NCBI RefSeq assembly: GCF_016903815.1
Contig: NZ_CP069973.1
From: Escherichia coli
Lineage (GTDB): Bacteria; Pseudomonadota; Gammaproteobacteria; Enterobacterales; Enterobacteriaceae
Strand: one strand, 5' to 3'
Length of the DNA stretch: 64,000 nt
Shown: piece by piece, positions 22,344 through 59,997 of the stretch
Layout of the letters: each line of letters opens with the position of its first letter
How positions within the stretch are numbered: position 1 is the stretch's first letter
Notes under the pieces: generated by a model
Told to the model about the DNA's origin: nothing
What the model saw: the letters and a program-made list of their open reading frames with translations, nothing else
Databases searched by the model: none
Program-made: the position numbers and the translations under genes

Positions 22344-22355
22344 GGGCAAATCCAA

Positions 22356-25356: not shown

Positions 25357-25979
25357 CACCGGAGATACTGAGCAACATGATTCGTCAGTACTTCAGCCAG
25401 GAACGACCAGAAGAAGAGGCCATACAGGCCCTGAATCATCTGCGCAGGGTGCTTCATGAGGTCAGTCCATTTGCACAGGAGCCTGTGGACTGTGTGCTGT
25501 GGGTGAAAGCAGATGAGGTGGTGGCCAACGATTATAACCCCAATGTCATGGCGCCGGGTGAGAAGAAACTGCTGAAACATTCACTGGAGCAGGATGGGTT
25601 CACGCAGCCTGTGGTTGTCTCGGAAGAGAAGGAGCATTATCTGGTCGTGGATGGTTTTCATCGTCAATTACTGGGCAGGGAAGCAGGTACGGGAAAACGC
25701 CTGAAGGGCTGGTTGCCAGTGACCTGTATTAATCCGGAAAGAAAGGGACAGGCCTCACGTATTGCTGCAACCATTAGACATAACCGGGCCAGGGGGAAGC
25801 ACCAGATAACTTCAATGTCTGATATTGTCAGGGACCTGTCGCGGCTGGGCTGGACGGATGAACGTATTGGTACGGAGCTGGGTATGGACCAGGATGAAGT
25901 TCTCAGGTTGAAACAGATTAGCGGGCTGACGGAGCTGTTTCTGGAAGAGGATTTCAGTCCGGCATGGACGATTCGCTGA
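25341..25979 (+). CDS. ibrB: IbrB-like ParB/sulfiredoxin-fold (DGQHR-like) protein
   Basis: VVDGFHRQ motif (DGQHR-like) in a 212-aa ORF. Confidence 0.65.
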   Translation: MGDSVTPEILSNMIRQYFSQERPEEEAIQALNHLRRVLHEVSPFAQEPVDCVLWVKADEVVANDYNPNVMAPGEKKLLKHSLEQDGFTQPVVVSEEKEHYLVVDGFHRQLLGREAGTGKRLKGWLPVTCINPERKGQASRIAATIRHNRARGKHQITSMSDIVRDLSRLGWTDERIGTELGMDQDEVLRLKQISGLTELFLEEDFSPAWTIR

Positions 25980-26018
25980 GACCGTCATATATGTATATTA
26001 TTTCAGTGAGTTAATGTT

Positions 26019-26327
26019 TTGAGCAGGAAAAAGAGTACCCCGGAAGTCGTGGAATACATGGTTGCACAGAAGCTGGAGGCTGCGGGTTGCTGGCGCAGAG
26101 CTTCCGCCCGCTGGCTTTTTGTTATGGGAAATGTTGAATGTACAGAAGCACAACGGGAGTGGTTGTTGTTGCGCAGGAATTATTGCCTGGCGCAGATATC
26201 GTCCCCGCCGCTACCTGAAAAGCTGGATATCAGCGAAGTGGCGAAAGCTGCAGATGCCACGCTGAGGCGAATGGGGATTGCCAGTCCGTCCGGGGAGGTA
26301 TTCAGAAAAGGTACACCGGTCTGTTGA
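26019..26327 (+). CDS. PerC-family transcriptional regulator homolog
   Basis: LEAAGCWRRASARW segment resembles PerC/Pch family. Confidence 0.5.
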   Translation: MSRKKSTPEVVEYMVAQKLEAAGCWRRASARWLFVMGNVECTEAQREWLLLRRNYCLAQISSPPLPEKLDISEVAKAADATLRRMGIASPSGEVFRKGTPVC

Positions 26328-26347
26328 TATTCAGGTAACAGGTATTA

Positions 26348-26992
26348 ATGATGAAGAAAGGAATGGCAAACAGTATATCAATGACATGGCAACTTTTATG
26401 CGATGATCATGGTTTTACCCGGGAGCACTACAATCAGCTGAAGAAATTCAGCCCGGAGGCATTACGTGAAATTATTGCTGAAATAGCCTGCTGCCATCCG
26501 TCAACCAGTATATTGCTCAGGAATAAGTGGCTGACACTGCCGGAGGATATTCCGGAGCAGGTTACCCGTGAATACGAACGAAGAATACAGAACTGTCCAT
26601 CTTTCAGGAGCGAGAAAGAGGCGGAATCCTGGCTAAATGAACTGTTTTTTGCTGTGATTGCGCCGCTATACCGGGTTGTCCCCGGACAATCAGAACAGGT
26701 TGAATCCTTTGTTCTGCAGCTTATTGCCGAACAGGAGCGGGTTTGGGAGCTTATTCTAACCAATGATGGTTATTCATGGCATTGCGCACTTTATGATATA
26801 TTATTTCATCTGGTTTTACGAAATATGGAAGACCAGCCTGAACATCAGAGACAGCGAATAACAAAAATACTTAATGAGTCCGATACAAGGCGGGTTGCAG
26901 AAGAGATTAAATTCCGGATTCAATATCTTCAGGATGAAGAACAAAAGAGAGTTTTAAGTGAGTTGGTAAATGTCCTGATTTCAAAAAGATAA
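26348..26992 (+). CDS. Hypothetical protein
   Basis: 214-aa ORF 20 bp downstream of the PerC-like gene. Confidence 0.4.
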   Translation: MMKKGMANSISMTWQLLCDDHGFTREHYNQLKKFSPEALREIIAEIACCHPSTSILLRNKWLTLPEDIPEQVTREYERRIQNCPSFRSEKEAESWLNELFFAVIAPLYRVVPGQSEQVESFVLQLIAEQERVWELILTNDGYSWHCALYDILFHLVLRNMEDQPEHQRQRITKILNESDTRRVAEEIKFRIQYLQDEEQKRVLSELVNVLISKR

Positions 26993-27427
26993 AACATGTC
27001 GGAGTAATTTTTCTATATATTAAAAAAACAGGTTTGTATTACCATAAAGGAGATCGGTGAATAACCGTTATTGGATGATCTCCTTCCATAAAAATACGCG
27101 CAATCTAACGGTTCGCTCTGTGCCAAAAAAAGACATTGCTCACAATATCGAGTTAATCATTCGGCCGTTGAACATTCCCATTGAAAAATTTCTCAGTATA
27201 GAATATACCAATGTTGAGGGCATTCCTCTTACATCTCGAAGGATAACTATCATGGGTCTAAAACCAGGTCCAAAACCAATTGCTAAGTCAACAGGAAAAC
27301 CGGATCAACGCCGACGCGATAATAAAGATACTCCTGGCAATACTCCGGGATTAAAGCCAAGTAAGTCCACAGGTAAGTAAAAAATAAGGGTATAAATACT
27401 TATTTATACCCTGACTACATATCCAGT

Positions 27428-28252
27428 CTACTGAAGGTGTTTCTGCAGCCAGATGCACGTTCCTTCTATATCATACGCCTGTGCCCCATACCCTTTAGCA
27501 AGCAAAGTCTCTGGTAAATACTCGTCATATTTATCCAGATACTTGTCGGGAACAACTGCAGCAAGCTCAAACTCTGAAGGTAGCCCCGACAATAGCATTT
27601 TCTTAAGTGCACGCTGGACAGAGGCAACGCCTGAGTCCTCTACCTCTATCACACCTGCAAATGAACTGGCTTTAAAGCCACAACGTATAATCAGGGACGT
27701 AATTGTATTGACAATTTTATCCCCCATCCACGGGATCACGTAGCAGTTCTGACCACTGGCAATAAAACAGTCATTTTGTAGATTGTAGCGTTGGAAGTTG
27801 TCACTTCCTTCCGCGAAGAGGCTTCTGGCTGCGGCATCAGCATAATCGACTCTCTTGTTGCCTACCGCGATACGGTAATCATTTTCCCTGTAGATAGTGA
27901 GCATTTCCTGGCGAACAACATCATGAACAGACATCCCGGTACCACTGAATAGTGGCGGCTGACCGCCTTTAGTCGTCTCAACATAGATAACCTTTTTTTC
28001 AACCTCGATCTCTGTCACTTTCCAGCGCCGTCCGCCGAAGATGATGTGCTGCTCCGGCAAAAGTGGGGAGTCTACAGGCACTGTGCCAAGAGTTCGGTTT
28101 CCCGTTACAATGCGAAACTCCTCAGGTGTATTGAATACGGCATAAAACGTGTAGTGATTAGTCAGCTTCTCCCCCTCAGCCCCGACAACTATTTCACCGC
28201 TGGTTAGTTGAGTGAGCAGTACGGGGTCGGACCGGTATGCAGCGAACTGCAT
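27428..28252 (-). CDS. Hypothetical protein abutting an IS junction (possibly N-terminally truncated)
   Basis: 274-aa ORF whose 5' end overlaps the start of the IS3-family OrfB frame on the opposite strand. Confidence 0.4.
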   Translation of the reverse strand: MQFAAYRSDPVLLTQLTSGEIVVGAEGEKLTNHYTFYAVFNTPEEFRIVTGNRTLGTVPVDSPLLPEQHIIFGGRRWKVTEIEVEKKVIYVETTKGGQPPLFSGTGMSVHDVVRQEMLTIYRENDYRIAVGNKRVDYADAAARSLFAEGSDNFQRYNLQNDCFIASGQNCYVIPWMGDKIVNTITSLIIRCGFKASSFAGVIEVEDSGVASVQRALKKMLLSGLPSEFELAAVVPDKYLDKYDEYLPETLLAKGYGAQAYDIEGTCIWLQKHLQ

Positions 28253-28604
28253 ATTGCCCCGTCAACGTATTACCATTGTCAGCAACAGCGACATCATCCG
28301 GATAAACGCAGTGCCCGTGTGCAGCACGATGACTGGCTGAAGAGAGAGATACAGCGCGTATACGATGAAAATCATCAGGTGTACGGTGTGCGTAAAGTCT
28401 GGCGTCAGTTGTTACGGGAAGGAATCAGGGTGGCCAGATGTACAGTGGCGCGCCTCATGGCGGTTATGGGACTTGCCGGTGTTCTCCGGGGTAAAAAGGT
28501 CCGTACGACCATCAGCCGGAAAGCCGTTGCCGCAGGCGACCGCGTAAACCGTCAGTTCGTGGCAGAACGTCCTGACCAGTTGTGGGTGGCTGATTTTACT
28601 TACG
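28208..28604 (+). CDS. IS3-family transposase OrfB, 5' exon
   Basis: Ends ...ERPDQLWVADFTY just before GTGTG. Confidence 0.6.
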
Positions 28605-31347
<2,743 letters not shown>

Positions 31348-31389
31348 GTTCACAGATAAAACACTCTCCAGGAAACCCGGGGCGGTTCA

Positions 31390-31539
31390 TTCCTAAAAAG
31401 ACATGTCTTGCCCAATATACTCAACATGAACTAGATCTGGTTGCTGCTCAGCTAAACAACAGACCGAGAAAGACACTGAAATTCAAAACACCGAAAGAGA
31501 TAATTGAAAGGGGTGTTGCATTGACAGATTGAATCTACA
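31390..31539 (+). mobile_element. IS30 3'-terminal fragment
   Basis: Encodes ...[34 protein letters not shown] and ends in terminal repeat ...TTGACAGATTGAATCTACA. Confidence 0.5.
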
Positions 31540-32823: not shown

Positions 32824-33588
32824 GGTAGTGCATCCAATTAGTAGAATATGTGTTTTTCGATAAATGCTCCGATCACTTTTTCGTGGATCTCAACTGAGCG
32901 TGAGAAGCAGATTGTTTACGAGCCAACCGCTTAATGTGGGTGCGTAGCGTCAGATTATTACGCTCAATGCGTTGGGTGAATATTTTGCCGGTCAGATGCT
33001 TATTCTTCGGCACCACCCGGCCATAGCTGTCCCAGTCATCGCTGGTGAGCATGCCGATGTTGAAGGGTGTAAGCAGTGCCAGTAGCTCCCGGCACGTTTG
33101 ATTGGTTCGGGGACCAAAAGTGTAGGCCAGTACACCGCCTGTTTTGGTGTTGTACGCGTACCAGAGCCAGTGTAGCCGGGCTTTACTGCCAACGTAGCTC
33201 CATTGCTCATCAAGCTCGCAGATAAGCGCCACATCAGCATGGGCAACAGGCGAAGAAGTTATTTGCGTTGGCGCGAGTTTTTTAAAGTCCGGATGATGGT
33301 GTTAATACCAATTTTCAGTGTCCTGGCGGTATCGCGAACCCCGGCACCATTAAAGGCCATTTCAGTGATCATCTCTTTCATACCCGGCTTACGTGCTTGA
33401 TAAGTATAAGTGAGCTGAAACACACGGTGGCAGTCACGGCAGCGAAATCTGTCACGGCCTTTAGGGTTCTGACCATGGCGGTAAACCTGAGCTGACTGAC
33501 AACGGGGACAATGAATATTAACGCTGGCCATGAGATAACCTCAAAAGCCCGTATTATACATCAGATTCAACCAATTAGAGGCATCACC
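32824..33588 (-). mobile_element. IS1-family insertion sequence, divergent isoform (InsA-like 33259-33531, InsB-like 32873-33232)
   Basis: InsA-like zinc-finger ORF and InsB-like ORF; terminal repeats GGTAGTGCATCC... and ...GGCATCACC. Confidence 0.7.
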
Positions 33589-33783: not shown

Positions 33784-35253
33784 ATGCATATCGATTCGAC
33801 TGAAAAAAATAATAAACAAAAGTTGGGCTTGCTTGCGCTAACATCCATTGTCGTGAGCTCGATGATCGGCAGCGGCGTTGACGGACTCCCCCAGAATATG
33901 GCGGAGAATTCTGCCGTGGGCCCGGTGGCGATAGCATGGATAGTCTGTGGTATCGGCATGTTTTTCATCTCCAGAACTTTTATCGTGCTGTCAAACATTA
34001 GACCTGATCTCCAGTCAGGAGTTTATATGTATGCCCGGGAAGGGTTCGGCCGATTTACGGCATTTAACGTCGCCTGGGGCTACTGGCTGATGACTATATT
34101 CAGCAACGTCGCCTTTGCCATTATGGTGATGGATACGCTGAATTATTTCTTACCAGGTGATTTCAAGGGAGGGAACAATATTCCTTCCGTTATCGGTGCC
34201 TCTTTGCTGATATGGGGATTCAACTTTTTAGTCCTCTCCGGTACCCGCATTGCCGGGTCGATTAACATCGTCGGCACGCTGGCCAAACTGATCCCGCTGG
34301 TGGCCTTTATTATTATTCTCATGCTGTTTATGAAGTACACCACGTTCGCAGATAACGTCTGGGGGCACAGCGCGAGTAAGGCCAGTCAGGACCTAGGCTC
34401 TATTTTCTCACAGGTAACTTCACCGCTTAGCGTGGCACTCTGGAGCTTCATCGGCGTTGAGGGGGCTGTCGCTCTTTCCGGTCGGGCCAAAAATAAACGC
34501 GACGTGGGTAAAGCCACATTCATTGGCTTCGTTGTATCACTGATTATCTGTCTGCTGGTCTCCATCCTGCCGTTTGGCGTGCTGACTCAACATGAGCTCA
34601 GCGCAATTCCAACCCCATCCACCGCCGGTATTCTGAAGATTGTTGTCGGTGAATGGGGGAAGATTATGATTATCTTGGGGGTGCTGATTTCGGTGCTTAC
34701 CAGCTGGCTGGCGTGGACCATCATCTGCGCCGAACTGCCTATGGTGGCCGCGCAGAACGGCACATTCCCGAAACCGTTCAGCAAAAAAAATGTGAAGGGT
34801 TCGGCCTCGGTTTCGCTTTATATAAGCAGTGCGTTTATGCAAATCGTCGTACTTCTGGTCTACTTTTCTAACGATGCCTGGCTTGCAATGCTGGCTATCT
34901 CTACCCTGACCGTTTTACCTGCGTATTTAATGACCACGGCATACCTGTTTAAACTATGTATTAGCGGCGAGTATGCCAGCTATACCACGAATCACAGCCG
35001 CAGCGCCGCGCTGGTCAGCAGTATTATCGGCTTTGTATTCTGCCTGTTTATGTTCTACGCCAGTGAAATCAAATATCTGGCGATGGTTCCGGTGCTGCTT
35101 ACGCTGGGCGTGCCCCTGTTTATCTGGGCAAGAAAAAAAGACGATCGCGCAGATAAAATATTTACGCTACGCGAACTGGCATTTTTTATTTTACTGCTGG
35201 TCCTCGACATCATTGTTTTTATTCTACTGCATTATAAAACGATACATTTTTAG
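33784..35253 (+). CDS. APC-superfamily amino acid/polyamine antiporter (CadB/PotE/AdiC-like), copy 1
   Basis: 489 aa, about 12 TM segments; N-terminal SMIGSGV-type motif. Confidence 0.8.
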   Translation: MHIDSTEKNNKQKLGLLALTSIVVSSMIGSGVDGLPQNMAENSAVGPVAIAWIVCGIGMFFISRTFIVLSNIRPDLQSGVYMYAREGFGRFTAFNVAWGYWLMTIFSNVAFAIMVMDTLNYFLPGDFKGGNNIPSVIGASLLIWGFNFLVLSGTRIAGSINIVGTLAKLIPLVAFIIILMLFMKYTTFADNVWGHSASKASQDLGSIFSQVTSPLSVALWSFIGVEGAVALSGRAKNKRDVGKATFIGFVVSLIICLLVSILPFGVLTQHELSAIPTPSTAGILKIVVGEWGKIMIILGVLISVLTSWLAWTIICAELPMVAAQNGTFPKPFSKKNVKGSASVSLYISSAFMQIVVLLVYFSNDAWLAMLAISTLTVLPAYLMTTAYLFKLCISGEYASYTTNHSRSAALVSSIIGFVFCLFMFYASEIKYLAMVPVLLTLGVPLFIWARKKDDRADKIFTLRELAFFILLLVLDIIVFILLHYKTIHF

Positions 35254-35357
35254 TCCAGATTAATTCACAGCAAGTTAAGGTGACGATAATGTCTGTTTCT
35301 TGGGCATGACATCCTCACAGTTAAATACTATCTGAACAGTAACAGTGGAGACACCTA

Positions 35358-37727
35358 ATGAAATTTAACCACAATCTTTTATTTATTTCCTCACAATATC
35401 TTGATGGCGACAACCCTTCGCAGCAGGTACTGGAAGAGCTTCAAACCGAACTCGCGGAACGCGGTTTTAAAATTCATATCACGCACCAGATCTCTGATGG
35501 ATTAAAAATCATCGAAAAAAGCCCCCAATACAGCGGGATTGGTTTTTACTGGGAGCCAGACAATCCGACCTTTGCAGAAGAGCTACAGCACTTTATCAGC
35601 ATATTCCGCAAAAGAAATGCCACGACGCCGCTGATAATTTTCTCAGAACAGAATATTACCGATCGTATCCCACTCGACGTCTTAAAAGAGGTCAGCGAAT
35701 ATGTTTATCTGTTCTCTGAATCCGCAGCCTTCACTGCCAATCGACTGTACTCCTTAGTCCACCGCTATGCGGATAAGCTTCTTCCTCCCTACTTTAAAAC
35801 CCTTAAGGACTTTACCGAGGACGGTGACTATTACTGGGACTGCCCGGGGCATATGGGGGGAATGGCCTATCTGAAACATCCTGTTGGCATTGAGTTCATT
35901 AACTTCTTTGGCGAAAACATGATGCGCGCTGATATTGGCGTGGCTACCGCGGAGATGGGGGATTATCTGATCCACGCCGGACCGCCTAAAAAATCGGAAG
36001 AAATTGCGGCCCGACTGTTTGGCTCTGATTGGACCTTCTACGGTGTTTCCGGCTCATCGGGGTCGAACCGTATTGTGGCCCAGGCTGCGGTTGGCGCAGA
36101 TGAAATTGCCATTATTGACCGAAATTGCCACAAGTCACTTAATCATGGCCTGACCTTGTCTCAGGCAAGGCCGGTTTACCTGAAACCTACCCGCAACGCG
36201 TGGGGGCTGATTGGGCCTATCCCGACCGGACGCCTGAAGAAGGCCAGTATTGATGCGCTGGTGGCAAACAGCCGACTGGCATCTGGTGCGGTCAGCCAGT
36301 CCCCGTCCTACGCCGTGGTAACCAACTGCACCTATGATGGCTTCTGTTATAACGTGAACGATGTAGTCAGACACCTGGGTGAAAGCGCACCGCGCATCCA
36401 TTTTGATGAAGCATGGTATGCCTATGCGCGTTTCCATCCGCTATACCAGAGTCGCTATGCAATGGACGCGGAGGAAACGCCAAATCGTCCAACCCTATTC
36501 GCCGTACAGTCCACCCATAAAATGCTGCCCTCACTCTCCATGGCCTCAATGATTCATGTGAAGAAAAGCGATCGCGCGCCGCTTAATTTCGATGACTTTA
36601 ACGATGCCTTTATGATGCACGGCACGACCTCACCCTACTACCCGATCATTGCATCAATTGATGTGGCAGTAAGCATGATGGAGGGTGAATCCGGTTATTC
36701 GCTTGTGCAGGAGTCAATTGAAGAAGCGATTGCCTTCCGTAAAGCCGTGGTCAGCGTCAAGCGCCAGCTCCAGGAGCAGGAAGGTGGTGACGCCTGGTTC
36801 TTCGATGTGCTTCAGCCAACCGAAGTGCAGGACAGCGATTCTGGGCAGCGATACAGTTTTGAAGAGGCACCCGTATCGCTGCTGAGCCACAGCGCCGACT
36901 GCTGGTCGCTGCGCTCCGGTGAGCGCTGGCACGGTTTTGCCGATGATGATCTGGTCGAAACCAACAGTATGCTCGATCCAGTAAAAGTGACCCTGACTTG
37001 TCCAGGGATCGGCCCGAAGGGAGAATACCAGAAAAACGGTATTCCGGGATATTTGCTGACCCGTTTTCTCGATGACCGTCGCATTGAAATTGCCCGTACT
37101 GGTGACTACACCGTGCTGATCCTGTTCTCCGTCGGCATCACCAAAGGCAAATGGGGAACTCTGATTGAAAGCCTGCTGGCCTTTAAAAAGCATTACGACA
37201 ATGACGATCTGGCCACAGATGCTATCCCGTCGCTGAAAGCGCATTCTCCACACTACGACACGCTAACCCTCAAGGAGCTATGTCAGATAATGCATGAAAA
37301 AATGGATGAGCTGGAGCTGATGTCGCATATCAACGACGCGGTAAACACCGATCCGGAACCAGTTATGACCCCGGCAGAAGCCTATCAGAAAGTCGTACGC
37401 TACAAAACCGAGCATATCCGGCTGGATGATTTTAGCGGCAGAATTGCCGCCAGCATGCTCGTCCCATATCCCCCAGGCATTCCTGTACTGATGCCGGGCG
37501 AACGGATGCCGCAAGGTAACAAGGGCATTATTGGCTATCTGCGCGCCCTGCAGGAATTCGATAAGCAATTCCCAGGTTTTGAACATGAGATCCAGGGCGT
37601 TAACGTCGATGAAGACGGGGACTTCTGGGTCAGAGCGATTGTGGAAGAAGAACGCGATGGGCAGTCGCTACCCGGCCACATAACCTTTAAACGCCAGGTC
37701 TCTGGTATTAAAAAGGGCCGCCAGTAG
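35358..37727 (+). CDS. Orn/Lys/Arg decarboxylase family protein (fold-I PLP, wing domain), substrate unknown
   Basis: 789 aa; PLP-lysine motif QSTHKMLP; N-terminal wing domain; overall similarity to AdiA/SpeF/CadA. Confidence 0.85.
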   Translation: MKFNHNLLFISSQYLDGDNPSQQVLEELQTELAERGFKIHITHQISDGLKIIEKSPQYSGIGFYWEPDNPTFAEELQHFISIFRKRNATTPLIIFSEQNITDRIPLDVLKEVSEYVYLFSESAAFTANRLYSLVHRYADKLLPPYFKTLKDFTEDGDYYWDCPGHMGGMAYLKHPVGIEFINFFGENMMRADIGVATAEMGDYLIHAGPPKKSEEIAARLFGSDWTFYGVSGSSGSNRIVAQAAVGADEIAIIDRNCHKSLNHGLTLSQARPVYLKPTRNAWGLIGPIPTGRLKKASIDALVANSRLASGAVSQSPSYAVVTNCTYDGFCYNVNDVVRHLGESAPRIHFDEAWYAYARFHPLYQSRYAMDAEETPNRPTLFAVQSTHKMLPSLSMASMIHVKKSDRAPLNFDDFNDAFMMHGTTSPYYPIIASIDVAVSMMEGESGYSLVQESIEEAIAFRKAVVSVKRQLQEQEGGDAWFFDVLQPTEVQDSDSGQRYSFEEAPVSLLSHSADCWSLRSGERWHGFADDDLVETNSMLDPVKVTLTCPGIGPKGEYQKNGIPGYLLTRFLDDRRIEIARTGDYTVLILFSVGITKGKWGTLIESLLAFKKHYDNDDLATDAIPSLKAHSPHYDTLTLKELCQIMHEKMDELELMSHINDAVNTDPEPVMTPAEAYQKVVRYKTEHIRLDDFSGRIAASMLVPYPPGIPVLMPGERMPQGNKGIIGYLRALQEFDKQFPGFEHEIQGVNVDEDGDFWVRAIVEEERDGQSLPGHITFKRQVSGIKKGRQ

Positions 37728-37801
37728 GCGGGGGAAAGAACAATACCGTCGGATCGCCTGCAATCCGACGGCAATATTATAGAATAGCTGAGGGAAACGT
37801 T

Positions 37802-39301
37802 ATGGCAGAGCAATCTTCAGATGTAAAAAATAGTGACAATAGCGCCGGAGGACATAAGCTGGGGCTTATATCCCTCATCGCTATTGTCGTTAGCTCCATG
37901 CTGGGAGGCGGCGTTTTCAGTCTGCCGCAAAACACGGCGGCCTCTTCTGCACTAGGGCCAGTAATCATTGCATGGATTATTGCCGGGATCGGTATTTATT
38001 TTATCGCAAACTCCTTTCGCGTACTATCAGATCTGCGCCCGGACCTTCAGGCTGGAGTGTATATGTATGCCCAGGAAGGTTTTGGTTCCTTTATTGGCTT
38101 TAACGTCGCCTGGGGCTACTGGCTGATGACCGCATTTGGCAACGTTGCCTTTGCGGTAATTTTAATGGATGCTTTTAATCAGTTTATGCCGGGGGTTTTT
38201 ACGGATGGTAATAATCTGAACTCCATTATCTGCGGCTCAGTGCTGATCTGGGGCTATAATTTTCTTGTTCTGTCCGGGACGAAAGTGGCCGGATTTGTTA
38301 ACACCTTGGGAACCATCGCCAAGCTCGTCCCTCTGATCCTATTCGTATTACTGCTGGGTGTGCTGATCGATTATTCGGACCTGTTTAAAAACTTTTGGGG
38401 AGAATCACCCGCGATCCTCAGTGGCAACGGAAATGACGCCGCACCAGTATCGCTGCTGTCTCAGATTCTGGCACCGATGACCGTAACGCTCTGGGCCTTT
38501 ATTGGCGTCGAGGGAGCGGTTGTTCTATCCGGACGTGCCAAAAATAAACAGGACGTAGGGAAAGCCACACTGATCGGCTTTCTGCTGGCGCTAATTATTT
38601 ATATGTTAATGTCCATTCTGCCGTTCGGTGTAATGCCTCAGGCAGAACTAGCGCAGGTCAGTAACCCCTCTACCGCAGGCGTGCTCGCCCACGTTGTCGG
38701 TCAGTGGGGCGACTGGCTGATGAGCGCGGGGCTGATTATTTCTGTTCTGGCCGGCTGGCTTGCCTGGACCATGCTATGCGCTGAAATACCGATGGTAGCA
38801 GGACAGAAAGGCGCTTTCCCGCGCGCGTTTGCCCGAACGAACAGTAAACAGGCGGCCAATGTGTCACTGTGGGTTAGTAGCTTTGTGATGCAGGCGGCCA
38901 TGTTACTTGTTTATTTTTCAAATAATGCTTGGACCACCATGTATAATATCAGTGCGCTGATGGTTGTTCCGGCCTATATTACCACCACGCTGTATCTGAC
39001 CAGTATTTGCAGAAACGGAAAATATGATCAGTATGCAAAAAAAGGCCGCAGGCTGGCTTTGTCCAGCGGTGTTTTAGGCTCGCTATTCTGTCTGTTTATT
39101 CTTTACGCCAGCCAGATTGAGTATGTTGCATTAATTCCTATCCTGTTGACCTGTGGTCTGCCGGTCTTTATCTGGTCAAGAAAAGAAAAAAATGATGGTC
39201 AGCCGATATTTACCAAAAAAGAGCTGATTTATCTGATTATGCTGTTGCTGTGCGATATTATCGTCGTTGCCCTGTTTATTGGTGGATATTTAAAGGTATA
39301 A
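37802..39301 (+). CDS. APC-superfamily amino acid/polyamine antiporter, copy 2 (paralog of 33784-35253)
   Basis: 499 aa; collinear with copy 1 (e.g. RPDLQAGVYMYAQEGFG vs RPDLQSGVYMYAREGFG). Confidence 0.8.
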   Translation: MAEQSSDVKNSDNSAGGHKLGLISLIAIVVSSMLGGGVFSLPQNTAASSALGPVIIAWIIAGIGIYFIANSFRVLSDLRPDLQAGVYMYAQEGFGSFIGFNVAWGYWLMTAFGNVAFAVILMDAFNQFMPGVFTDGNNLNSIICGSVLIWGYNFLVLSGTKVAGFVNTLGTIAKLVPLILFVLLLGVLIDYSDLFKNFWGESPAILSGNGNDAAPVSLLSQILAPMTVTLWAFIGVEGAVVLSGRAKNKQDVGKATLIGFLLALIIYMLMSILPFGVMPQAELAQVSNPSTAGVLAHVVGQWGDWLMSAGLIISVLAGWLAWTMLCAEIPMVAGQKGAFPRAFARTNSKQAANVSLWVSSFVMQAAMLLVYFSNNAWTTMYNISALMVVPAYITTTLYLTSICRNGKYDQYAKKGRRLALSSGVLGSLFCLFILYASQIEYVALIPILLTCGLPVFIWSRKEKNDGQPIFTKKELIYLIMLLLCDIIVVALFIGGYLKV

Positions 39302-39443
39302 GTCCGAGTTAAATCTTTACTGGGCTAGTAATGCCGCCTTTTAAACAAGAAGGGCGGCAATCTTACTGAAATTAGTATGCTGCAAATCGGTAATGCTGCC
39401 AACTTACTGATTTAGTGTATGATGGTGATTTTAAGGTGCTTGC

Positions 39444-39719
39444 GTGGCTTCCATTTCCATCAGATGTCCTTCCTGCTCCGCTACTGAAGGCGTGGTGCGT
39501 AACGGCAAAAGCACTGCCGGACATCAGCGCTATCTCTGCTCTCACTGCCGTAAAACATGGCAACTGCAGTTCACTTACACCGCTTCTCAACCCGGTACGC
39601 ACCAGAAAATCATTGATATGGCCATGAATGGCGTTGGATGCCGGGCAACTGCCCGCATTATGGGCGTTGGCCTCAACACGATTTTACGTCACTTAAAAAA
39701 CTCAGGCCGCAGTCGGTAA
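39444..39719 (+). CDS. insA: IS1 InsA
   Basis: [40 protein letters not shown]. Confidence 0.9.
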
Positions 39720-40141
39720 CCTCGCGCATACAGCCGGGCAGTGACGTCATCGTCTGCGCGGAAATGGGCGAACAGTGGGGCTATGTCGGGGCTAAATCGC
39801 GCCAGCGCTGGCTGTTTTACGCGTATGACAGGCTCCGGAAGACGGTTGTTGCGCACGTATTCGGTGAACGCACGATGGCGACGCTGGGGCGTCTTATGAG
39901 CCTGCTGTCACCCTTTGACGTGGTGATATGGATGACGGATGGCTGGCCGCTGTATGAATCCCGCCTGAAGGGAAAGCTGCACGTAATCAGCAAGCGATAT
40001 ACGCAGCGAATTGAGCGGCATAACCTGAATCTGAGGCAGCACCTGGCACGGCTGGGACGGAAGTCGCTGTCGTTCTCAAAATCGGTGGAGCTGCATGACA
40101 AAGTCATCGGGCATTATCTGAACATAAAACACTATCAATAA
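39638..40141 (+). CDS. insB: IS1 InsB
   Basis: 167-aa ORF identical to the InsB of copy B. Confidence 0.9.
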
Positions 40142-40142
40142 G

Positions 40143-40949
40143 TTGGAGTCATTATCTAACCGTAGCGTTTATTACGCGCAGGTGACGCGTCCTGTTAATG
40201 TGCAAAGAATTGACTTACGAAGTCGGGTGAGGGCTTTCCATGCTCTCAGTCGTGGCGCAGCCGGTAGCCGTGCAATCAGTCAGATGTTGCGCCAGAGTAG
40301 CGTTGATGCAGGCCGGTGGCTGGCACGACGACTGATGCGGGAATGCGGGCTGACAAGTCGACAGATGGTTAAACATCACTACCGGGTCAACGAAGACAAA
40401 AGTCCGCCATTGCCAAATTTACTGAACCGGCAATTTCACCCCGCCGCACCAGACCGCGTCTGGTGCGGCGACATCAGTTTTATTCGCCTGCATGACAAAT
40501 GGTGTTAGCTCGCGCTCGTTGTTGATTTATATTCACGGCGGATTACCGGTTCAGCCCTCTCATTAACCGCTGATGCTGAGTTGGTGTGTAGGGCTTTGCG
40601 TAATGCACTGGAAACACGATCACGTGATGGCCGTCTGCTGTTTCATTCAGATCAAGGTGTTCAGTATAAAAGCAATAAATACAGAAAGTTACTCTGGCGT
40701 TATGGGGTAATGCAAAGTATGAGTTGCAGAGGGAATGGCCTGGATAATTCGCCGATGGAAAGAGTCTTTCGCAGCCTTAAAAATGAATGGCTTCCGAAAG
40801 GTGGTTATGGTGATTTTATCCATGCGGTACGTGATATAAACCAGTGGATTAATGGTTATTACAACGTTTATCGACCTCACACGAACAACGATGGTTTACC
40901 GCCTTGCTTACATGAAGAAAAGTGGAAACAGGTTATTCCGGTGTCCTGA
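40143..40949 (+). pseudogene. IS3-family transposase remnants (two ORF fragments)
   Basis: Fragments ...RVWCGDISFIRL and ...[20 protein letters not shown]...YNVYRPH in different frames. Confidence 0.5.
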
Positions 40950-41151
40950 TTTTGTGAACCACTACAATAATCCTTTTTCACAGACTTGTCAGCAGCCAGC
41001 ATTTATGTTCTTTTACCTGCGGGAATTTATCCGTCTGCCTGTCGGGACTACTCTGTCATACAGAAATCAGGTAGGAATAAATTGTAGTGGAAAGTCGATG
41101 TTTACCGGATGACTGATGCGCGCTTGTACACAGACAGTGTGTTTCAGTAAT

Positions 41152-41667
41152 ATGGAGAATAATGAAATGAATAACACAGACACATTAGAAAAAATAATCA
41201 GACACCAAAAAAACAAAGACCCCGCATATCCCTTTCGGGAACATTTGTTGATGCAGCTCTGTATTCGCACAAATAAAAGAATGCAGGATAATATATCTGA
41301 ATTTCTGGGGGCGTATGGAATAAATCACTCAGCATATATGGTTCTCACCACATTATTCGCAGCGGAGAACCATTGTCTGTCACCTTCAGAGATAAGCCAG
41401 AAACTTCAGTTTACCAGAACTAATATTACCCGCATTACAGATTTTTTAGAAAAAGCCGGATATGTAAAAAGGACGGATAGCAGGGAGGATCGCCGTGCTA
41501 AAAAAATCAGTCTGACATCTGAAGGTATGTTTTTTATTCAGAGGCTCACTCTTGCACAAAGCATGTATCTGAAAGAAATCTGGGATTATCTGACTCATGA
41601 TGAACAGGAACTGTTTGAAGTCATTAATAAAAAATTACTGGCACATTTTTCTGATGCCAGCTCATAA
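41152..41667 (+). CDS. MarR-family transcriptional regulator (PapX/SfaX/FocX-like)
   Basis: Winged-helix MarR pattern; start taken at MENNEMNNTDT; resembles fimbrial-operon-associated regulators from memory. Confidence 0.55.
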   Translation: MENNEMNNTDTLEKIIRHQKNKDPAYPFREHLLMQLCIRTNKRMQDNISEFLGAYGINHSAYMVLTTLFAAENHCLSPSEISQKLQFTRTNITRITDFLEKAGYVKRTDSREDRRAKKISLTSEGMFFIQRLTLAQSMYLKEIWDYLTHDEQELFEVINKKLLAHFSDASS

Positions 41668-42133
41668 AGTGCGAAATATCTGAGGATGCTGGATAGCTTC
41701 AGGCAAGAGAATAATGATTCTTGCAGATGTGTTTTTCCGGATACAAAAACAAAAGTAAAAAATTGCAGCGCCAGGCCACCTTTCAAAGCAGGGAGGCTTG
41801 TACCGCGTCGAAAATTTCAGCCAGTTAATGTAATTGTCTGAACCAGGCACTTCGCCCGGGCAGGAGAAGGAGCGTGGTTGCGGTCATCCTGTATACTGAA
41901 GTCGTTATGAAGGAATAATACAAATAATTGCCCGTTTTCTCTGTACGATAGAGGCAGGTGTGTATGATTGCATCACTATGTTTTTGTGATATAAAAAACT
42001 AAATGGTGAGATATGCATTTTAAAATATAACAAAAATCACCATGAAATAAGAATAATTATCCACGGAGAACATAAACTGCAGACTGTTACAATGCATGCT
42101 GTTCATCTTGACAATGTCGGTAATGACTCCAAC

Positions 42134-42637
42134 TTATTGATAGTGTTTTATGTTCAGATAATGCCCGATGACTTTGTCATGCAGCTCCACCGATTTTGAG
42201 AACGACAGCGACTTCCGTCCCAGCCGTGCCAGGTGCTGCCTCAGATTCAGGTTATGCCGCTCAATTCGCTGCGTATATCGCTTGCTGATTACGTGCAGCT
42301 TTCCCTTCAGGCGGGATTCATACAGCGGCCAGCCATCCGTCATCCATATCACCACGTCAAAGGGTGACAGCAGGCTCATAAGACGCCCCAGCGTCGCCAT
42401 CGTGCGTTCACCGAATACGTGCGCAACAACCGTCTTCCGGAGCCTGTCATACGCGTAAAACAGCCAGCGCTGGCGCGATTTAGCCCCGACATAGCCCCAC
42501 TGTTCGCCCATTTCCGCGCAGACGATGACGTCACTGCCCGGCTGTATGCGCGAGGTTACCGACTGCGGCCTGAGTTTTTTAAGTGACGTAAAATCGTGTT
42601 GAGGCCAACGCCCATAATGCGGGCAGTTGCCCGGCAT
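42134..42637 (-). CDS. insB: IS1 InsB
   Basis: Identical translation to copy A InsB. Confidence 0.9.
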
Positions 42638-42831
42638 CCAACGCCATTCATGGCCATATCAATGATTTTCTGGTGCGTACCGGGTTGAGAAGCGGTGTAA
42701 GTGAACTGCAGTTGCCATGTTTTACGGCAGTGAGAGCAGAGATAGCGCTGATGTCCGGCAGTGCTTTTGCCGTTACGCACCACGCCTTCAGTAGCTGAAC
42801 AGGAGGGACAGCTGATAGAAACAGAAGCCAC
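42556..42831 (-). CDS. insA: IS1 InsA
   Basis: Near-identical to copy A InsA. Confidence 0.9.
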
Positions 42832-43360
42832 TGGAGCACCTCAAAAACACCATCATACACTAAATCAGTAAGTTGGCAGCATCACCCAATCTGCTGACAG
42901 ACGAAGATAATGAACCCGTTATGGTTTTTAACGGAGAGAGGAATGTACTGGCAGACAGTCTGAAACCACAGCCTCTGATTCTTCCGGTCAAGGGAAAATA
43001 AGCGTAATGTTCATCACCAGATTATGTACGATGAGTTTTCCACTGTTTATAGCAATTATCTTGCTAATAACCAGACAGGAGTAACCAGACCAACCGAAAA
43101 CACCGGGAAGGTGATTACCCGCTGGCAGAGGAAATCCGGTTTTTTTTGATGTCAGCCATAACGTGTTTGACAATAAAGCATCATGAAAGGGTGTTAATGA
43201 GTCCATGGGATAATTCATAAAAATAATTTACTGTGTTATCCTTTTCAAAAGAAATATTCAGAAGATAACCCCTGGCTGACAACCAGGGGAAGGGGGCATT
43301 AACAGTGTTATTATTGGTGAATAAATTATTACTTGTGTGCAGGATACACTAATGCAATAT

Positions 43361-44434
43361 CTACTGATACTGTATGCCAGTATGTTTCATGCCTGCCGCT
43401 GAAAACGGCAATATCCAGGGCCAGACATATTCACCATTCATATTTCTGCATTTCTGTACAATTTTCTCAGAAAGCGTCTCATCAATTCTTTCACGCAACT
43501 TCTCCTGCTGTCTTAAAATACTTTCGCATATTTCGAAATCATCTTCCTGCATCAGCATTTCGGCGCATTTAATGATTTCTGCCCGTTCATGCAGCACAGA
43601 GGAATGATTATAGAGCCAGTTTACAAACAGCAATGCTTCCGGATATTGCCCCCATAACGGGTGGTATGTGGCATAATAATCTTCGGCAGTATCCGGACCG
43701 CCTGAAAAGTTATGCCATACAGCAAGTGGAAATGGATGCAGATTTCCGCACAGTATTTCTGCGATGTAAGTATTTGCCGCAAAGCCGCGACGAAATGCAG
43801 TTGCAGCTTTTACCAGTTCCCCATTAAGAAAATGCAGAAGGCCGAGTTCATACCAGTAAGGTGAAAATTCATCTGCATGTTCCTGCAGTATATGGCGTGC
43901 CTGTTCATGAGCGCCAGTGCGTAACAGTTCCGGTCCCAGTAGCCAGCGTGCACCATGATTATCTTCGGGATTGTAATCCAGTATTTTTTCAATGAGCATG
44001 ATGGCATCCTGATGACGCCGTAAATGTGCATTTGCCAGGATTGCCGCATAGAGGGCACGAAGAAAAGGTCGGTTGTCAGGATGTATCCAGATGATTCTGC
44101 CACTGAAACCTTCAGGGATAAGACGATTGCCAACTGCCAGCCCTTTAAGGGCAGCATTCAGCGCCTTACGCGGGGCATTCTGCTCCAGAAATACGTATGC
44201 CAAGTGAGCGTGTACATCAATAAAGTCATTCTCCTGTCGGGCAAGGCGCCTGAGTTTGTTGATGTAACTTGTTTCGCTGATTTCATCCGCATCGTATGCA
44301 TCAATCAGTTCTTCAAACTCATCCAGCAACGAGCCAAACCAGGTTTCCGGAAATATGAAACAGCCCTGGTTATCGTTCACTTCAAAGCGTAATTTGCCAG
44401 TCATATTCTGAACCTGTAAAAAAGGATGGACCAT
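43361..44434 (-). CDS. Hypothetical protein, possibly TPR-like helical repeats
   Basis: 357-aa ORF between IS1 copy B and the integrase gene. Confidence 0.4.
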   Translation of the reverse strand: MVHPFLQVQNMTGKLRFEVNDNQGCFIFPETWFGSLLDEFEELIDAYDADEISETSYINKLRRLARQENDFIDVHAHLAYVFLEQNAPRKALNAALKGLAVGNRLIPEGFSGRIIWIHPDNRPFLRALYAAILANAHLRRHQDAIMLIEKILDYNPEDNHGARWLLGPELLRTGAHEQARHILQEHADEFSPYWYELGLLHFLNGELVKAATAFRRGFAANTYIAEILCGNLHPFPLAVWHNFSGGPDTAEDYYATYHPLWGQYPEALLFVNWLYNHSSVLHERAEIIKCAEMLMQEDDFEICESILRQQEKLRERIDETLSEKIVQKCRNMNGEYVWPWILPFSAAGMKHTGIQYQ

Positions 44435-44659
44435 AACCTGCAGGCTATAAAAATTGTGATGCCTGGCATCGGTGTCCTTTTATTGTCCGGGATTAACGTT
44501 GCCCATGATAATACAGTGAATTCTGTTCTGTGGTAAGACGTTGAGTTATTGAATGAGAACCTCAGCCTGGCTGATGGTTCCGCCGGCATAAAAAAGAAAT
44601 TGATTGAGGCGGGTGCTCTTCCCCTTAAGAGGAAGAGCATGTGTGTAAATGGCGTTCAG

Positions 44660-45925
44660 TCACCTTTTCAGTGGATTGTTAACTTTTGCATATTCAAACG
44701 GACTGATACACTCCTCCCTGTTTGCATCCAGAAAATCTGCCCACCATTGCAGCATAAGCCGACGTTCTTCCAGATGTTCTGCTTTATGAATATACGCGGC
44801 ACGTACTCCGTTGCGCTCCTGATGACTCATCTGACGTTCAACCGCATCTCTTGACCATAAGCCGGATTCAATCAATGCACTGCACGCCATCGCCCGGAAT
44901 CCATGGCCACAGACTTCCTTGGTTGTGTCATACCCCATCACCCTCAGGGCTTTATTTACAGTATTTTCACTGATTGGTTTACGCGGGTCATGTGCACCCG
45001 TAAATATCAGACCATTTTCACCTGCCCATGTCTGAAGTTCTGTCAGTATGGCTACAGCCTGTTTACTGAGTGGCACAAGATGTGGTGTCCGCATCTTGGA
45101 GCCCCGGTGTGAGAATTTTACGCCAGGCAGAGGTTCGCGTTCGGCTGGAATAGTCCACATGGCATTGTCAATATCAATTTCAGACCAGCGGGCATATCTG
45201 AGTTCACTGGAACGAATAAAAACCAGTAAATTCAGCATAACGGCAAGCCGGGTGACAGGCTGGCCTTTATAACCGTCAATACGCGACAGAAGTTCAGGCA
45301 GGCGTGAAAGATTCAGAGCGGGGCGATGCTGGCGTTTTACCGTGGTCAATGCACCAGCCATATCCAGAGCCGGGTTATATCTGATGATGCCAGACTGTAC
45401 GGCGTAACGCATTACAGCAGATATTCTTTGCTGCAGACGACTAGCGATTTCATAAATTTGTTTTGCTTCTGCAGCACGAACAGGGATAAGCAGGTCCGGG
45501 GTATTGAGTGTTGTGATATCCCGGTTGCCGATAAAGGGGAAAACGTGTGTCTCGAGGCTTTTGAGTACTTTATCGCTGTGTGATTGTGCCCATTGTTTAT
45601 TACTGGCATGCCAGCGTCGTGCAATATGTTCAAAAGAGAGCTGTAAATCAGGGACTACTTTTTTAACTCTTTTCTGTTCGCAAGGGTCAATCCCCTCTGA
45701 AATCAGTTTTCGGGCCTCATCCCGTTTTGTACGAGCTTCGGAGAGAGAAACTTCTGGATACACACCAAGTGCCAGAGTCTTCTCCTTACCCAGAATACGA
45801 TAACGGAGACGCCAGTAACGGGAACCATTAGGATGAACCAGCAGGAACATGCCGGCCCCGTCAGTGAGTTTATAAGCCTTGTCAGTGGGCTTTGCAGCCC
45901 GGATTTTTGCGTCAGTCAGTGCCAT
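44660..45925 (-). CDS. int: P4-type tyrosine integrase
   Basis: 421 aa; C-terminal catalytic segment HGFRAMA...RQMSHQERNGVRAAYIH; sits about 200 bp from the 3' end of tRNA-Phe. Confidence 0.9.
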   Translation of the reverse strand: MALTDAKIRAAKPTDKAYKLTDGAGMFLLVHPNGSRYWRLRYRILGKEKTLALGVYPEVSLSEARTKRDEARKLISEGIDPCEQKRVKKVVPDLQLSFEHIARRWHASNKQWAQSHSDKVLKSLETHVFPFIGNRDITTLNTPDLLIPVRAAEAKQIYEIASRLQQRISAVMRYAVQSGIIRYNPALDMAGALTTVKRQHRPALNLSRLPELLSRIDGYKGQPVTRLAVMLNLLVFIRSSELRYARWSEIDIDNAMWTIPAEREPLPGVKFSHRGSKMRTPHLVPLSKQAVAILTELQTWAGENGLIFTGAHDPRKPISENTVNKALRVMGYDTTKEVCGHGFRAMACSALIESGLWSRDAVERQMSHQERNGVRAAYIHKAEHLEERRLMLQWWADFLDANREECISPFEYAKVNNPLKR

Positions 45926-46085
45926 AGTTCAGCCTTCTGAATGCGTTAAAGAGGGTATAAATTCTGTCGAACTGGGGTATGCCCACAATTATACCCACAC
46001 AATGAGGTTGATGTGGGGGGAATCTGGTTGAGTTCGGTAGAATTGATTTGGAGGCAGGACGCTTAAATCGTGGCGTCCTGGAATG

Positions 46086-46113
46086 AAAAACGGACCTCCG
46101 TGGAGGTCCGTTG
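46086..46113 (-). terminator. Hairpin terminator downstream of pheU
   Basis: CGGACCTCC-ACG-GAGGTCCG followed by T-run on minus strand. Confidence 0.5.
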
Positions 46114-46122
46114 ATATGAATT

Positions 46123-46198
46123 TGGTGCCCGGACTCGGAATCGAACCAAGGACACGGGGATTTTCAATCCCCTGCTCTACCGACTGAGCTATCCGGGC
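46123..46198 (-). tRNA. pheU: tRNA-Phe (anticodon GAA)
   Basis: Reverse complement reads GCCCGGATAGCTCAGTCGGTAGAGCAGGGGATTGAAAATCCCC...GGGCACCA, 76 nt. Confidence 0.9.
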
Positions 46199-46304
46199 AA
46201 CGGGGCGCATTAAACCGTAATCTGCACATCTCGTCAACCTAATTTCAGTAAAAGCGATTCAACTGCTTAAGATTGCGGCAAATCGCTTCTTTTCTGTGTT
46301 TCTG

Positions 46305-59996: not shown

Positions 59997-59997
59997 G

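Follow-up and report, generated by a model that had tools for sequence, protein, structure and literature searches.

How does an intact regulator gene come to stand alone between two IS1 copies, beside the fragments of another transposase, and what might it still do there? We examined this question for a locus in a 64,000-nucleotide stretch of Escherichia coli DNA (hereafter, the window). A first-pass annotation had described two 768-bp IS1 copies in opposite orientation with identical InsB proteins, enclosing about 2 kb with transposase fragments and one intact MarR-family gene. The repeat search and the ORFs agree on the IS1 pair, and the enclosed DNA proved to be 1,962 bp long, holding what is left of the 3′ part of an IS3-family element together with an intact MarR-type gene for a 183-aa product. 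The features of the locus are as follows.

39389..40156, plus strand: IS1 on the antiporter side, 768 bp, with IRL at its outer (left) end; insA 39444-39719 and insB′ 39638-40141, both plus strand (repeat search, ends, ORFs, RefSeq)
40157..40966, plus strand: IS3-family element, 3′ remnant of 810 bp (NCBIfam transpos_IS3, RefSeq pseudogene)
40967..41115, plus strand: native papX upstream region with the predicted proximal promoter (alignment to the F11, CFSAN061771, and B36 upstream regions)
41116..41667, plus strand: papX, MarR-type winged-helix regulator, 183 aa, RefSeq WP_001447126.1
41668..42118, plus strand: DNA downstream of papX, ending at the IS1 junction (homologous to intact pap/sfa loci up to 41872 or 41951)
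42119..42886, minus strand: IS1 on the integrase side, 768 bp, with IRL at its outer (right) end (repeat search, ends, RefSeq)
42887..43001, plus strand: ept′, the final ~115 bp of a phosphoethanolamine transferase gene carried by the island, cut by IS1 (alignment to YP3)
42988..46198, minus strand: conserved integrase-proximal end of the island (ORFs, profiles, RefSeq, Rfam), made up of the following four features
42988-43218, minus strand: hypothetical ORF, 76 aa
43361-44404, minus strand: TPR-like protein, 347 aa
44660-45925, minus strand: P4-type tyrosine integrase
46123-46198, minus strand: tRNA-Phe, pheU

The repeat search returned a single inverted pair with arms at 39389-40154 and 42121-42886 (766 nt, 98% complementary, spacing 1,966 nt), and the full 768-bp limits were set by reading the ends against the IS1 terminal repeats. 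A repeat of this length and identity is a multicopy IS, far beyond what chance would produce. The IS1 length, terminal inverted repeats of ~23 bp, and a frameshifted insA/insB′ arrangement are present in both copies; IRL and IRR match in each, with the IRL ends pointing outward. RefSeq describes the left copy as "IS1 family transposase, programmed frameshift" and the right copy as "IS1-like element IS1A family transposase". The InsB ORFs (167 aa) are identical and the InsA ORFs differ at 2 residues. At the nucleotide level, the copies are identical over IS1 positions 92-766 (~675 bp) and show 13 differences grouped at the IRL end, the left copy carrying a divergent IRL-proximal haplotype at positions 4-91. 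A frameshifted "IS1 family" gene at ~32.8-33.5 kb displayed no nucleotide similarity to these copies by megablast and is therefore not a third recombination partner.

The enclosed regulator carries a MarR domain (Pfam PF01047, E 2.1e-11; MarR_2, E 1.5e-10, residues 67-128). RefSeq names this allele merely "MarR family transcriptional regulator", and the best curated NCBIfam match of the protein is the MprA equivalog, at 120.7 bits and thus under the 157-bit cutoff. Its suspected resemblance to fimbrial-operon regulators was borne out by direct comparison: the protein is identical at 182/183 residues to ST131 (EC958/B36) PapX, with A66V as the sole change, at 175/183 to F11 PapX (8 aa different), and at 173/183 to an SfaX (10 aa different), and the DNA is 99.6% identical to loci that RefSeq names papX. 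Judged from these alignments, the MarR gene is papX, a member of the PapX/SfaX/FocX family. Lys54 and Arg127, which we take to be DNA-binding residues, are both present in the window protein (183-aa numbering).

We then placed the locus in its island. E. coli strain 7/2 matches the window with 1 mismatch over the 44.6 kb compared and identifies the site as the pheU (tRNA-Phe) island; an Rfam scan of 36-47.5 kb likewise gave tRNA-Phe as its sole match. The left neighbor of the cassette is an amino-acid decarboxylase/antiporter cluster. No fimbrial structural genes are annotated from cadC to frdC in the strain 7/2 record, a span that covers the whole window, in agreement with the earlier remark that none adjoin the regulator, and the inner segment matches only one place in this record, leaving no second X gene. 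A large pheU–pheV chromosomal inversion ending in IS1 was considered because the module lies at pheV in MS14385 and at pheU in the window; it was rejected, as the strain 7/2 island is continuous from cadC to pheU and is a normal pheU island.

The first-pass annotation had suggested a deleted or rearranged operon, and comparison of islands found the missing operon intact at pheU in YP3. This strain carries a complete papI/papBAHCDJKEFG-III operon ending in papX, with an identical PapX protein accession. The operon reads toward the tRNA and adjoins the same TPR gene, integrase, and tRNA-Phe as in the window, in the order pap operon, ~4 kb, TPR gene, integrase, and tRNA-Phe; the ~4 kb after papX hold a GTPase pseudogene, a hypothetical gene, an outer-membrane protein gene, and a phosphoethanolamine transferase gene. 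YP3 and the window are 97% identical over 40967-41872 and 98.6% identical from 42887 onward. Window position 42887 aligns to position 18158 of the YP3 locus, within the ept coding sequence (16770-18272), and partial phosphoethanolamine transferase annotations occur at the ept′ matches in many genomes; by this alignment, the window has lost ~4 kb at the ept′ truncation compared with the intact locus. Because in YP3 the identical protein is encoded last in an intact pap operon that occupies this chromosomal site, papX here is a family member by descent, without its operon. Together, and taken jointly with the explanation as a whole, these comparisons make it highly probable that what remains here is the eroded terminus of a class-III P-fimbrial (pap) operon carried on the genomic island at pheU.

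The IS3-family remnant records part of this decay. Two ORFs (E 1.6e-22 and 8.3e-34) align with the last two thirds of the IS3-family transposase profile, covering positions 113-232 and 259-365 of the 369 in transpos_IS3, and RefSeq joins both into one N-terminally truncated pseudogene with an internal stop. Only the C-terminal two thirds of OrfB are left; the OrfB N-terminus was removed by IS1, and the left end of the element and OrfA are also missing. IS3-family elements have an OrfA/OrfB transposase with a DDE domain and termini of the form TG...CA; the right end of the remnant (...CACTACA at 40966) closes with CA and abuts native papX upstream DNA. An ancestor arranged as in YP3, with papI/papBAHCDJKEFG-papX reading toward the tRNA, would have received an IS3-family element ~57 bp upstream of the papX transcription start. 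Deletions associated with IS1 would then have taken away, on the upstream side, the structural genes of pap and the 5′ portion of the IS3 element, as well as ~4 kb downstream of papX, leaving papX and its own promoter between two inverted IS1 copies. This order of events (IS3 insertion, then IS1 deletions) is the one we infer. Orphan papX and IS decay at this locus is known, ordinary, and already-annotated mobile-element decay.

A related orphan is present on GI-pheV of ST131 (EC958_3259), where the order is papI-papB-papA′-IS1-papX-IS1-ept′-TPR-int-pheV. In one orientation of the ST131 form, the phase-variable papBA promoter is collinear with papX across IS1; in the window, the decarboxylase/antiporter operon is collinear with it. 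The IS1-papX-IS1 module could also be read as a composite transposon, that is, a mobile regulator cassette like Tn1681, an enterotoxin transposon with inverted IS1. Two complete outward-facing IS1 copies with intact terminal repeats and insA/insB′ would suit this reading, as would the presence of the module at both pheU and pheV beside differing outer DNA (the antiporter cluster; papA′ in ST131). However, with 9-bp flanks of CTGCAAATC / TAACCGTAG and GACAATGTC / CAATCTGCT, no 9-bp target-site duplication was found in any direct or reverse-complement pairing of the four flanks, in the window or in the ST131 form, as expected after adjacent deletions or inter-IS recombination. Furthermore, the truncated ept/TPR/integrase junction recurs on one side in every case, always broken at the same position, 1,815 of the 1,818 places matching the inner segment are chromosomal (3 plasmid), and the inner segment starts at 40157 in the window and at what corresponds to window position 40860 in ST131, a difference that fits adjacent deletions and not unit transposition. 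A composite transposon is, in our judgment, scarcely credible, and decay of a resident operon is the reading we retain.

We next considered whether papX kept its promoter. Homology to intact pap/sfa loci starts at 40967 and is near-identical to the F11 and SfaX loci onward; at the other end, the last ~170 bp before the right IS1 (~41952-42118) had no match in the comparison loci. The papX transcription start lies 144 bp upstream of the ATG used in the published mapping (PMC6246914). The residue numbering of that study corresponds to Met18 (41167), which is probably the experimentally used start, so that the published transcription start would map to an A at about 41024, preceded by putative −35 (TTGTCA, 40986-40991) and −10 (TTTTAC, 41011-41016) hexamers. 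Since the IS3 end lies ~57 bp upstream of the mapped start, the predicted papX promoter is kept. A simple scan for sigma-70 consensus promoters and terminators missed the published papX promoter and gave about as many matches as chance would.

PapX-type regulators repress flhDC transcription and motility via a 29-bp palindrome about 410 bp upstream of flhDC, whose promoter does not fall within the window. Repression of flhD by PapX and FocX, and a promoter from which papX is transcribed independently, are described in PMC6246914; in addition, EC958 papX scored (logFC 8.76) when transposon mutants were screened for enhanced motility (PMC5425062). By analogy with CFT073 and EC958, the window PapX may still be functional as a motility repressor, acting as a MarR-type dimer that would bind upstream of flhDC and repress flagellar motility, uncoupled from fimbriae. 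Retention of its own predicted promoter and the score of its ST131 counterpart as a motility repressor argue, by the same analogy, that papX is not merely a relic. The sub-cutoff MprA match, the generic RefSeq name, and the loss of the operon that the gene served could instead suggest that the gene is inert, or a non-fimbrial paralogue resembling MprA/EmrR, and plays no part in motility. This is very unlikely, as the protein matches the PapX of the intact YP3 operon residue for residue and is one residue away from the EC958 protein that scored in the screen, the ORF is intact, the inner segment is found at at least 99% identity in 941 genomes, and the promoter region is still in place. A lone MarR regulator in a pheU or pheV island can be read as papX left behind by IS-mediated loss of P-fimbriae; such an orphan keeps its promoter region and, by analogy with EC958, probably still represses motility, and virulence-gene screens that use papX as a marker of P-fimbriae would miscall such strains.

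The inverted IS1 pair had also been proposed to be capable of inverting the enclosed DNA, and both orientations do occur in complete genomes, including two near-isogenic pairs set apart by nothing but the flip. A census of 5,426 complete genomes found the window-type junction in 686, the inverted long type in 176, and the inverted ST131 type in 38. The long cassette was found 130 times in the window orientation (whole arrangement) versus 176 times inverted, and the ST131 short form ~556 versus 38 times. Between MB1341 and EC958, the flanks have 1 mismatch in 8,892 and 1 in 5,858 positions, and the 2,795-bp module, inverted between the two, shows 100% identity; between AH21I008 and MS20673, which also have opposite orientations, flank mismatches are 3 in 4,000 and 1 in 8,268. 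Both isomers have the same four 12-bp junction sequences, joined to swapped partners, which fits homologous recombination between the IS1 copies. Such recombination would flip the 1,962-bp cassette, and we infer that the flips arise by a RecA-type process within the ~675 bp of identical IS1, not by transposition. IRL-proximal IS1 polymorphisms stay with the outer flank, and the remainder is homogenised to an extent that differs between genomes. Clean reciprocal crossover points were rejected as an account of these polymorphisms, whose patterns fit gene conversion or repeated exchange; with IS1 mosaics that resemble gene conversion, a single exchange is too simple a recombination history.

The two orientations might alternatively be assembly artefacts, a 2-kb segment having been oriented arbitrarily in some "complete" genomes. 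The segment is short, its 768-bp repeats exceed Illumina inserts, and bubbles of this kind can be misresolved in hybrid assembly. However, the orientation ratio in the ST131 form is non-random, and a single orientation is shared by all listed genomes whose pheU flank is of the MS20673 type (S88, APEC O1, and MS7163 among them). Orientation also appears consistent in similarly named isolates (439/446/447/463, MSB1_7A/MSB1_3B, and three strain 405 assemblies), which have near-identical genome sizes and are grouped here by name and size. Since the IS1 haplotype differences between genomes need real recombination as well, we regard an artefact as very unlikely. Transposition of IS1 is replicative, with adjacent deletions and inversions as familiar by-products, and the second IS1 copy and the inversion could have arisen together by intramolecular replicative transposition; the 100% identity of the ST131 copies would suit such a recent copy. 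Yet the reverse-complement 9-bp targets expected at corresponding flanks are absent, the 13 IRL-end differences indicate that neither window copy is a fresh copy of the other, and the isomers share exactly the same four junctions, which a new event would not reproduce. Joint origin by replicative transposition is highly improbable, and as the cause of the flips between isomers it is refuted; homologous recombination between the copies remains our explanation of the flips.

Switches of the fimS or shufflon type have short inverted repeats and a dedicated site-specific recombinase, and they switch a promoter or a coding end. A programmed invertible switch of this type was rejected for papX: the repeats are whole IS1 copies, no invertase gene lies in or beside the cassette, and the papX promoter region is inside it. 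We also find it very improbable that the cassette is a slow recombinational switch with a phenotype, in which a flip would alter transcription into papX and selection would keep both isomers; were this the case, motility repression would be coupled to or released from neighboring promoters, with isomers selected in ST131 and in S88/APEC O1-type clones. The orientation polymorphism nevertheless offers a clean, countable IS1 micro-inversion within clones (~300 long-type and ~600 ST131-type genomes) and is a warning for pangenome and synteny analyses.

Finally, we compared the locus with known systems. With PapX, FocX, and SfaX of CFT073 and other uropathogenic strains, the window protein shares 94.5-95.6% identity, the MarR winged helix, and a conserved region at the predicted proximal promoter; in contrast, its allele combines PapX-type T52 and A114 with FocX/SfaX-type T120, has C-terminal variants of its own, and has no attached fimbrial operon. 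The intact class-III operon of YP3 shares the identical PapX, the upstream promoter region, the TPR gene, the integrase, and the tRNA-Phe–dicD neighborhood, whereas it keeps papI, papB to papG-III, and the ~4 kb between papX and the TPR gene, and lacks the IS3 and IS1 insertions; F11 has a layout similar to YP3 but at leuX. Inverted identical repeats, swapped but unchanged junctions, and partly homogenised copies are shared with inter-IS inversions in E. coli in general. Most reported ST131 inversions are large and origin- or terminus-centred (PMC11739808), whereas the papX flip involves a single-gene cassette of 1.3-2 kb; this flip is unmentioned in PMC5425062, PMC6246914, and PMC11739808. 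The ST131 orphan shares with the window the right IS1/ept′ junction, the IS3 tail upstream of papX, the inverted IS1 pair, the downstream end of the papX segment (..CTTGACAATGTC directly followed by IS1), and the occurrence of both orientations, and the two proteins differ by A66V alone. It differs in its pheV instead of pheU site, in its outer left flank, which is a truncated papA with papB and papI present where the window has the decarboxylase/antiporter cluster and papX as the sole pap gene, and in its fully identical IS1 copies, whereas those of the window pair differ.

A repeat search of the 36–46 kb region returned a single long inverted repeat, whose 766-nt arms (39389-40154 and 42121-42886) were 98% complementary. 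Comparison of their ends with the IS1 terminal repeats revealed two complete copies with IRL ends pointing outward. Their InsB ORFs were identical, as the first-pass annotation had stated for these opposed elements, and their InsA ORFs differed at 2 residues. The features were as follows:

39389-40156, + strand: left (antiporter-side) IS1 copy, 768 bp, complete
41116-41667: MarR-type gene, intact 183-aa ORF, MarR domain PF01047 (E 2e-11)
42119-42886, - strand: right (integrase-side) IS1 copy, 768 bp, complete
42887-43001, + strand: ept', last ~115 bp of a phosphoethanolamine transferase gene

The interior between the copies (the cassette) had been described as about 2 kb of transposase fragments with one intact MarR gene; it measured 1,962 bp and held, besides the 183-aa ORF, two ORFs that hit a 369-position IS3-family transposase profile at positions 113-232 and 259-365, a pair that RefSeq annotates as a single truncated pseudogene with an internal stop.

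The inner segment 40960-42120 had matches covering 80% or more of it in 1,034 complete E. coli genomes, many annotated as papX at 99.6% identity or as sfaX at about 94-95%. The window protein differed from ST131 PapX (EC958, B36) at 1 residue (A66V), from F11 PapX, whose accession is also the one annotated for papX in ATCC 25922, at 8, and from an SfaX/FocX-type protein at 10. Because of these matches and differences of 1-10 residues, clustering with non-fimbrial MarR proteins does not hold; judged by sequence comparison, the gene is papX, bearing out the PapX/SfaX-like regulator proposed initially. The curated NCBIfam library contains no PapX model, which probably explains the bare "MarR family" label in RefSeq, and its top match for the papX product was MprA, under its cutoff. 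Another lone X gene was observed in CFSAN061771 (2587-4702 of the fetched locus), where sfaX lies directly 3' of an IS2-like element, next to mchF and a colicin V-family gene, both microcin genes, and no sfa/foc structural genes occur close by; X regulators have thus been orphaned repeatedly by different IS events.

The finding lies at the integrase-proximal end of a ~75-kb island that reaches back to cadC, 3.2 kb from the tRNA-Phe gene pheU, beyond which lie dicD-dsbD-cutA; strain 7/2 (NZ_CP023820.1) showed 1 mismatch with the window over the 44.6 kb compared. No fimbrial structural genes were annotated from cadC to frdC, a stretch covering the whole window, consistent with the earlier remark that none were adjacent. 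At the same pheU site, YP3 carries papI, papB, papA, papH, papC, papD, papJ, papK, papE, papF, and papG-III, followed by an X gene whose product shares one RefSeq accession with the window protein, so that the deleted or rearranged fimbrial operon suspected at first can be named as pap. Downstream in YP3 come a GTPase pseudogene and genes for a hypothetical protein, an outer-membrane protein, and the phosphoethanolamine transferase, and then, as in the window, a 76-aa ORF, a TPR protein, an integrase, tRNA-Phe, and dicD. Identity between the window and YP3 was 97% over 40967-41872 and 98.6% from 42887 onward. Since only the last ~115 bp of the transferase gene are left beyond the right IS1, this copy marks a ~4-kb deletion. 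Homology 5' of papX ends at 40967, where the IS3-family remnant finishes (...CACTACA); an IS3-family element would thus have inserted between papG and papX, and all DNA further upstream, including the element's own 5' part, was probably removed later, up to the left IS1. Since the pap operons of ATCC 25922 (pheV) and F11 (leuX), which have a similar general layout, read towards the tRNA, the window orientation, with papX reading towards the tRNA, is the ancestral one. The feature is an ordinary, already-annotated result of IS-mediated operon decay. The 76-aa hypothetical ORF (42988-43218, - strand) overlaps the 3' end of ept' on the opposite strand, an overlap with the transferase gene also seen in ATCC 25922 and YP3, which lack this IS1, and may be a spurious call.

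The same island also holds other modules. Directly left of the finding (33784-39301) is a cluster in which the gene for a 789-aa Orn/Lys/Arg-type decarboxylase stands between two antiporter genes, the first of the basic amino acid/polyamine type; a frameshifted divergent IS1-family gene (about 32838-33531) bounds the cluster on one side and the left IS1 on the other. In its arrangement it is reminiscent of an acid-resistance module carried on an island; the decarboxylase scored far under the curated thresholds for AdiA (740 vs 1167 bits), LdcC/CadA, and SpeF, and was therefore assigned no substrate. The glycyl-radical propanediol-utilisation microcompartment (grp) locus occupies 1-16700 (4744618-4761320 of the strain 7/2 record), with grpA to grpO within the window and grpP, Q, R, and S just upstream of position 1, beyond a hypothetical gene and a small reverse-transcriptase-domain gene that break the locus between grpO and grpP. 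In the stretch from about 20500 to 27400, IS2-interrupted type VI secretion remnants (ImpA N-terminal fragment, VasL domain, POTRA fragment) are followed by ibrA/ibrB-like genes (PAPS reductase-like, IbrB-like) and a PerC-family regulator. At about 27400-31400, debris of IS30 and other transposases surrounds an IS3-family transposase pseudogene that harbours a group II intron (ltrA reverse transcriptase/maturase). Strain 7/2 also has an IS200C tnpA between ecnB and sugE (about 60100-60600) that is missing in YP3, whose alignment breaks at 59994-60700.

The cassette occurred in both orientations, in a long form starting at 40157 and in an ST131 short form starting at 40860. With A as the antiporter flank, H as the ept'/TPR/integrase flank, and the cassette in brackets, the arrangements were:

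Window: A-IS1-[IS3'>papX>]-IS1-H
MS14385, FDAARGOS_497: H-IS1-[IS3'>papX>]-IS1-A, interior inverted
ST131 B36, EC958: papA'-IS1-[40860..papX>]-IS1-H
ST131 SaT040, MB1341: inverted version of the B36/EC958 form

We searched 5,426 complete genomes with 1-kb queries, half outer flank and half interior (500 bp each) with IS1 left out, so that a full-length match demands a specific flank/interior pairing across one IS1. The window-type right junction was present in 686 genomes, the inverted long form in 176, the inverted ST131 form in 38, and the entire 4.6-kb window arrangement in 130; subtraction left about 556 genomes with the ST131 form in collinear orientation. When the flanks were specific to pheU, the window orientation was seen in 55 genomes, in two bands of identity to the window (100-99.8% and 99.2-99.0%), and the inverted form in 73, including S88, APEC O1, and MS7163.

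Near-isogenic pairs also differed in orientation. Between ST131 MB1341 and EC958, the flanks had 1 mismatch in 8,892 bp and 1 in 5,858 bp, and the 2,795-bp IS1-papX-IS1 module was 100% identical and reversed; between AH21I008 and MS20673 at pheU, the flanks had 3 mismatches in 4,000 bp and 1 in 8,268 bp, and the cassettes were opposite. Both pairs differ by the flip only, so the inversion attributed to the IS1 pair in the first-pass annotation has occurred. The 12 bases either side of each IS1 were the same in both isomers with partners merely swapped, indicating recombination within the repeats rather than new transposition; intramolecular replicative transposition of IS1 was rejected, its inversion signature being missing. 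Misassembly of individual genomes could possibly produce such a difference, but the orientation ratios were skewed, and orientation was apparently consistent among isolates with alike names and near-identical genome sizes. Nor do the IS1 mosaics fit misassembly: polymorphisms at IS1 positions 4-91 always travelled with the outer flank, and the rest of the integrase-side IS1 was converted to the other copy's sequence after position 127, 91, or 4, depending on the genome, which indicates repeated exchange or gene conversion.

In several fetched loci, located at pheU or pheV or, in 21AR0173, in tandem behind a further island, the module and antiporter cluster (>99.9% identical) were joined to varying tRNA-Phe-proximal ends, about 1.3-1.5% divergent from window 42119-46246. 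This makes the island a mosaic, and the alignments suggest that island backbones have recombined at the integrase-side IS1. At pheV, SaT040 differed from EC958/B36 by 72 mismatches in 9 kb on one side and by only 4 in 8 kb on the island side. Differing nupG, speC, and yqgA protein accessions suggest that the former is the chromosomal side, and thus a recombined chromosomal segment adjoining pheV within genomes carrying the ST131-type island.

The papX and focX transcription start has been mapped 144 bp 5' of the ATG, and an additional promoter independent of the fimbrial operon was concluded (Luterbach et al., PMC6246914). Residues T35, A97, and M103 of that study are residues 52, 114, and 120 of the 183-aa annotation; this probably puts its ATG at Met18 (41167) and the start at an A near 41024, about 57 bp inside the kept native DNA. 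TTGTCA at 40986 and TTTTAC at 41011, 19 bp apart, would fit the published promoter description, and a simple consensus promoter scan did not call this pair. EC958 carries the same IS1-flanked orphan papX, and in a transposon screen papX was one of the genes of that strain that raised motility when disrupted (logFC 8.76; PMC5425062); by analogy, the window papX probably encodes an active repressor of flhDC, whose promoter lies beyond the window. The only reading with some novelty, in which read-through from neighbouring promoters makes papX expression depend on the orientation of the cassette, we consider very improbable.

Published accounts exist of what PapX does (PMC6246914), of the EC958 orphan papX and its effect on motility (PMC5425062), of how pheV islands have evolved in modules shaped by IS elements (PMC11537424), and of IS1 activity in ST131 (PMC11739808). 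The literature examined did not mention the orientation polymorphism of the papX cassette, which may be a small unreported detail. The module does not behave as a composite transposon, because no pairing of IS1 flanks showed 9-bp target duplications, the integrase-side junction was invariant, and the module was hardly ever on plasmids. Nor is it a programmed fimS-type switch, since no invertase gene is present in or next to the cassette and the putative papX promoter lies within it. Inversion between inverted IS copies is a known mechanism.
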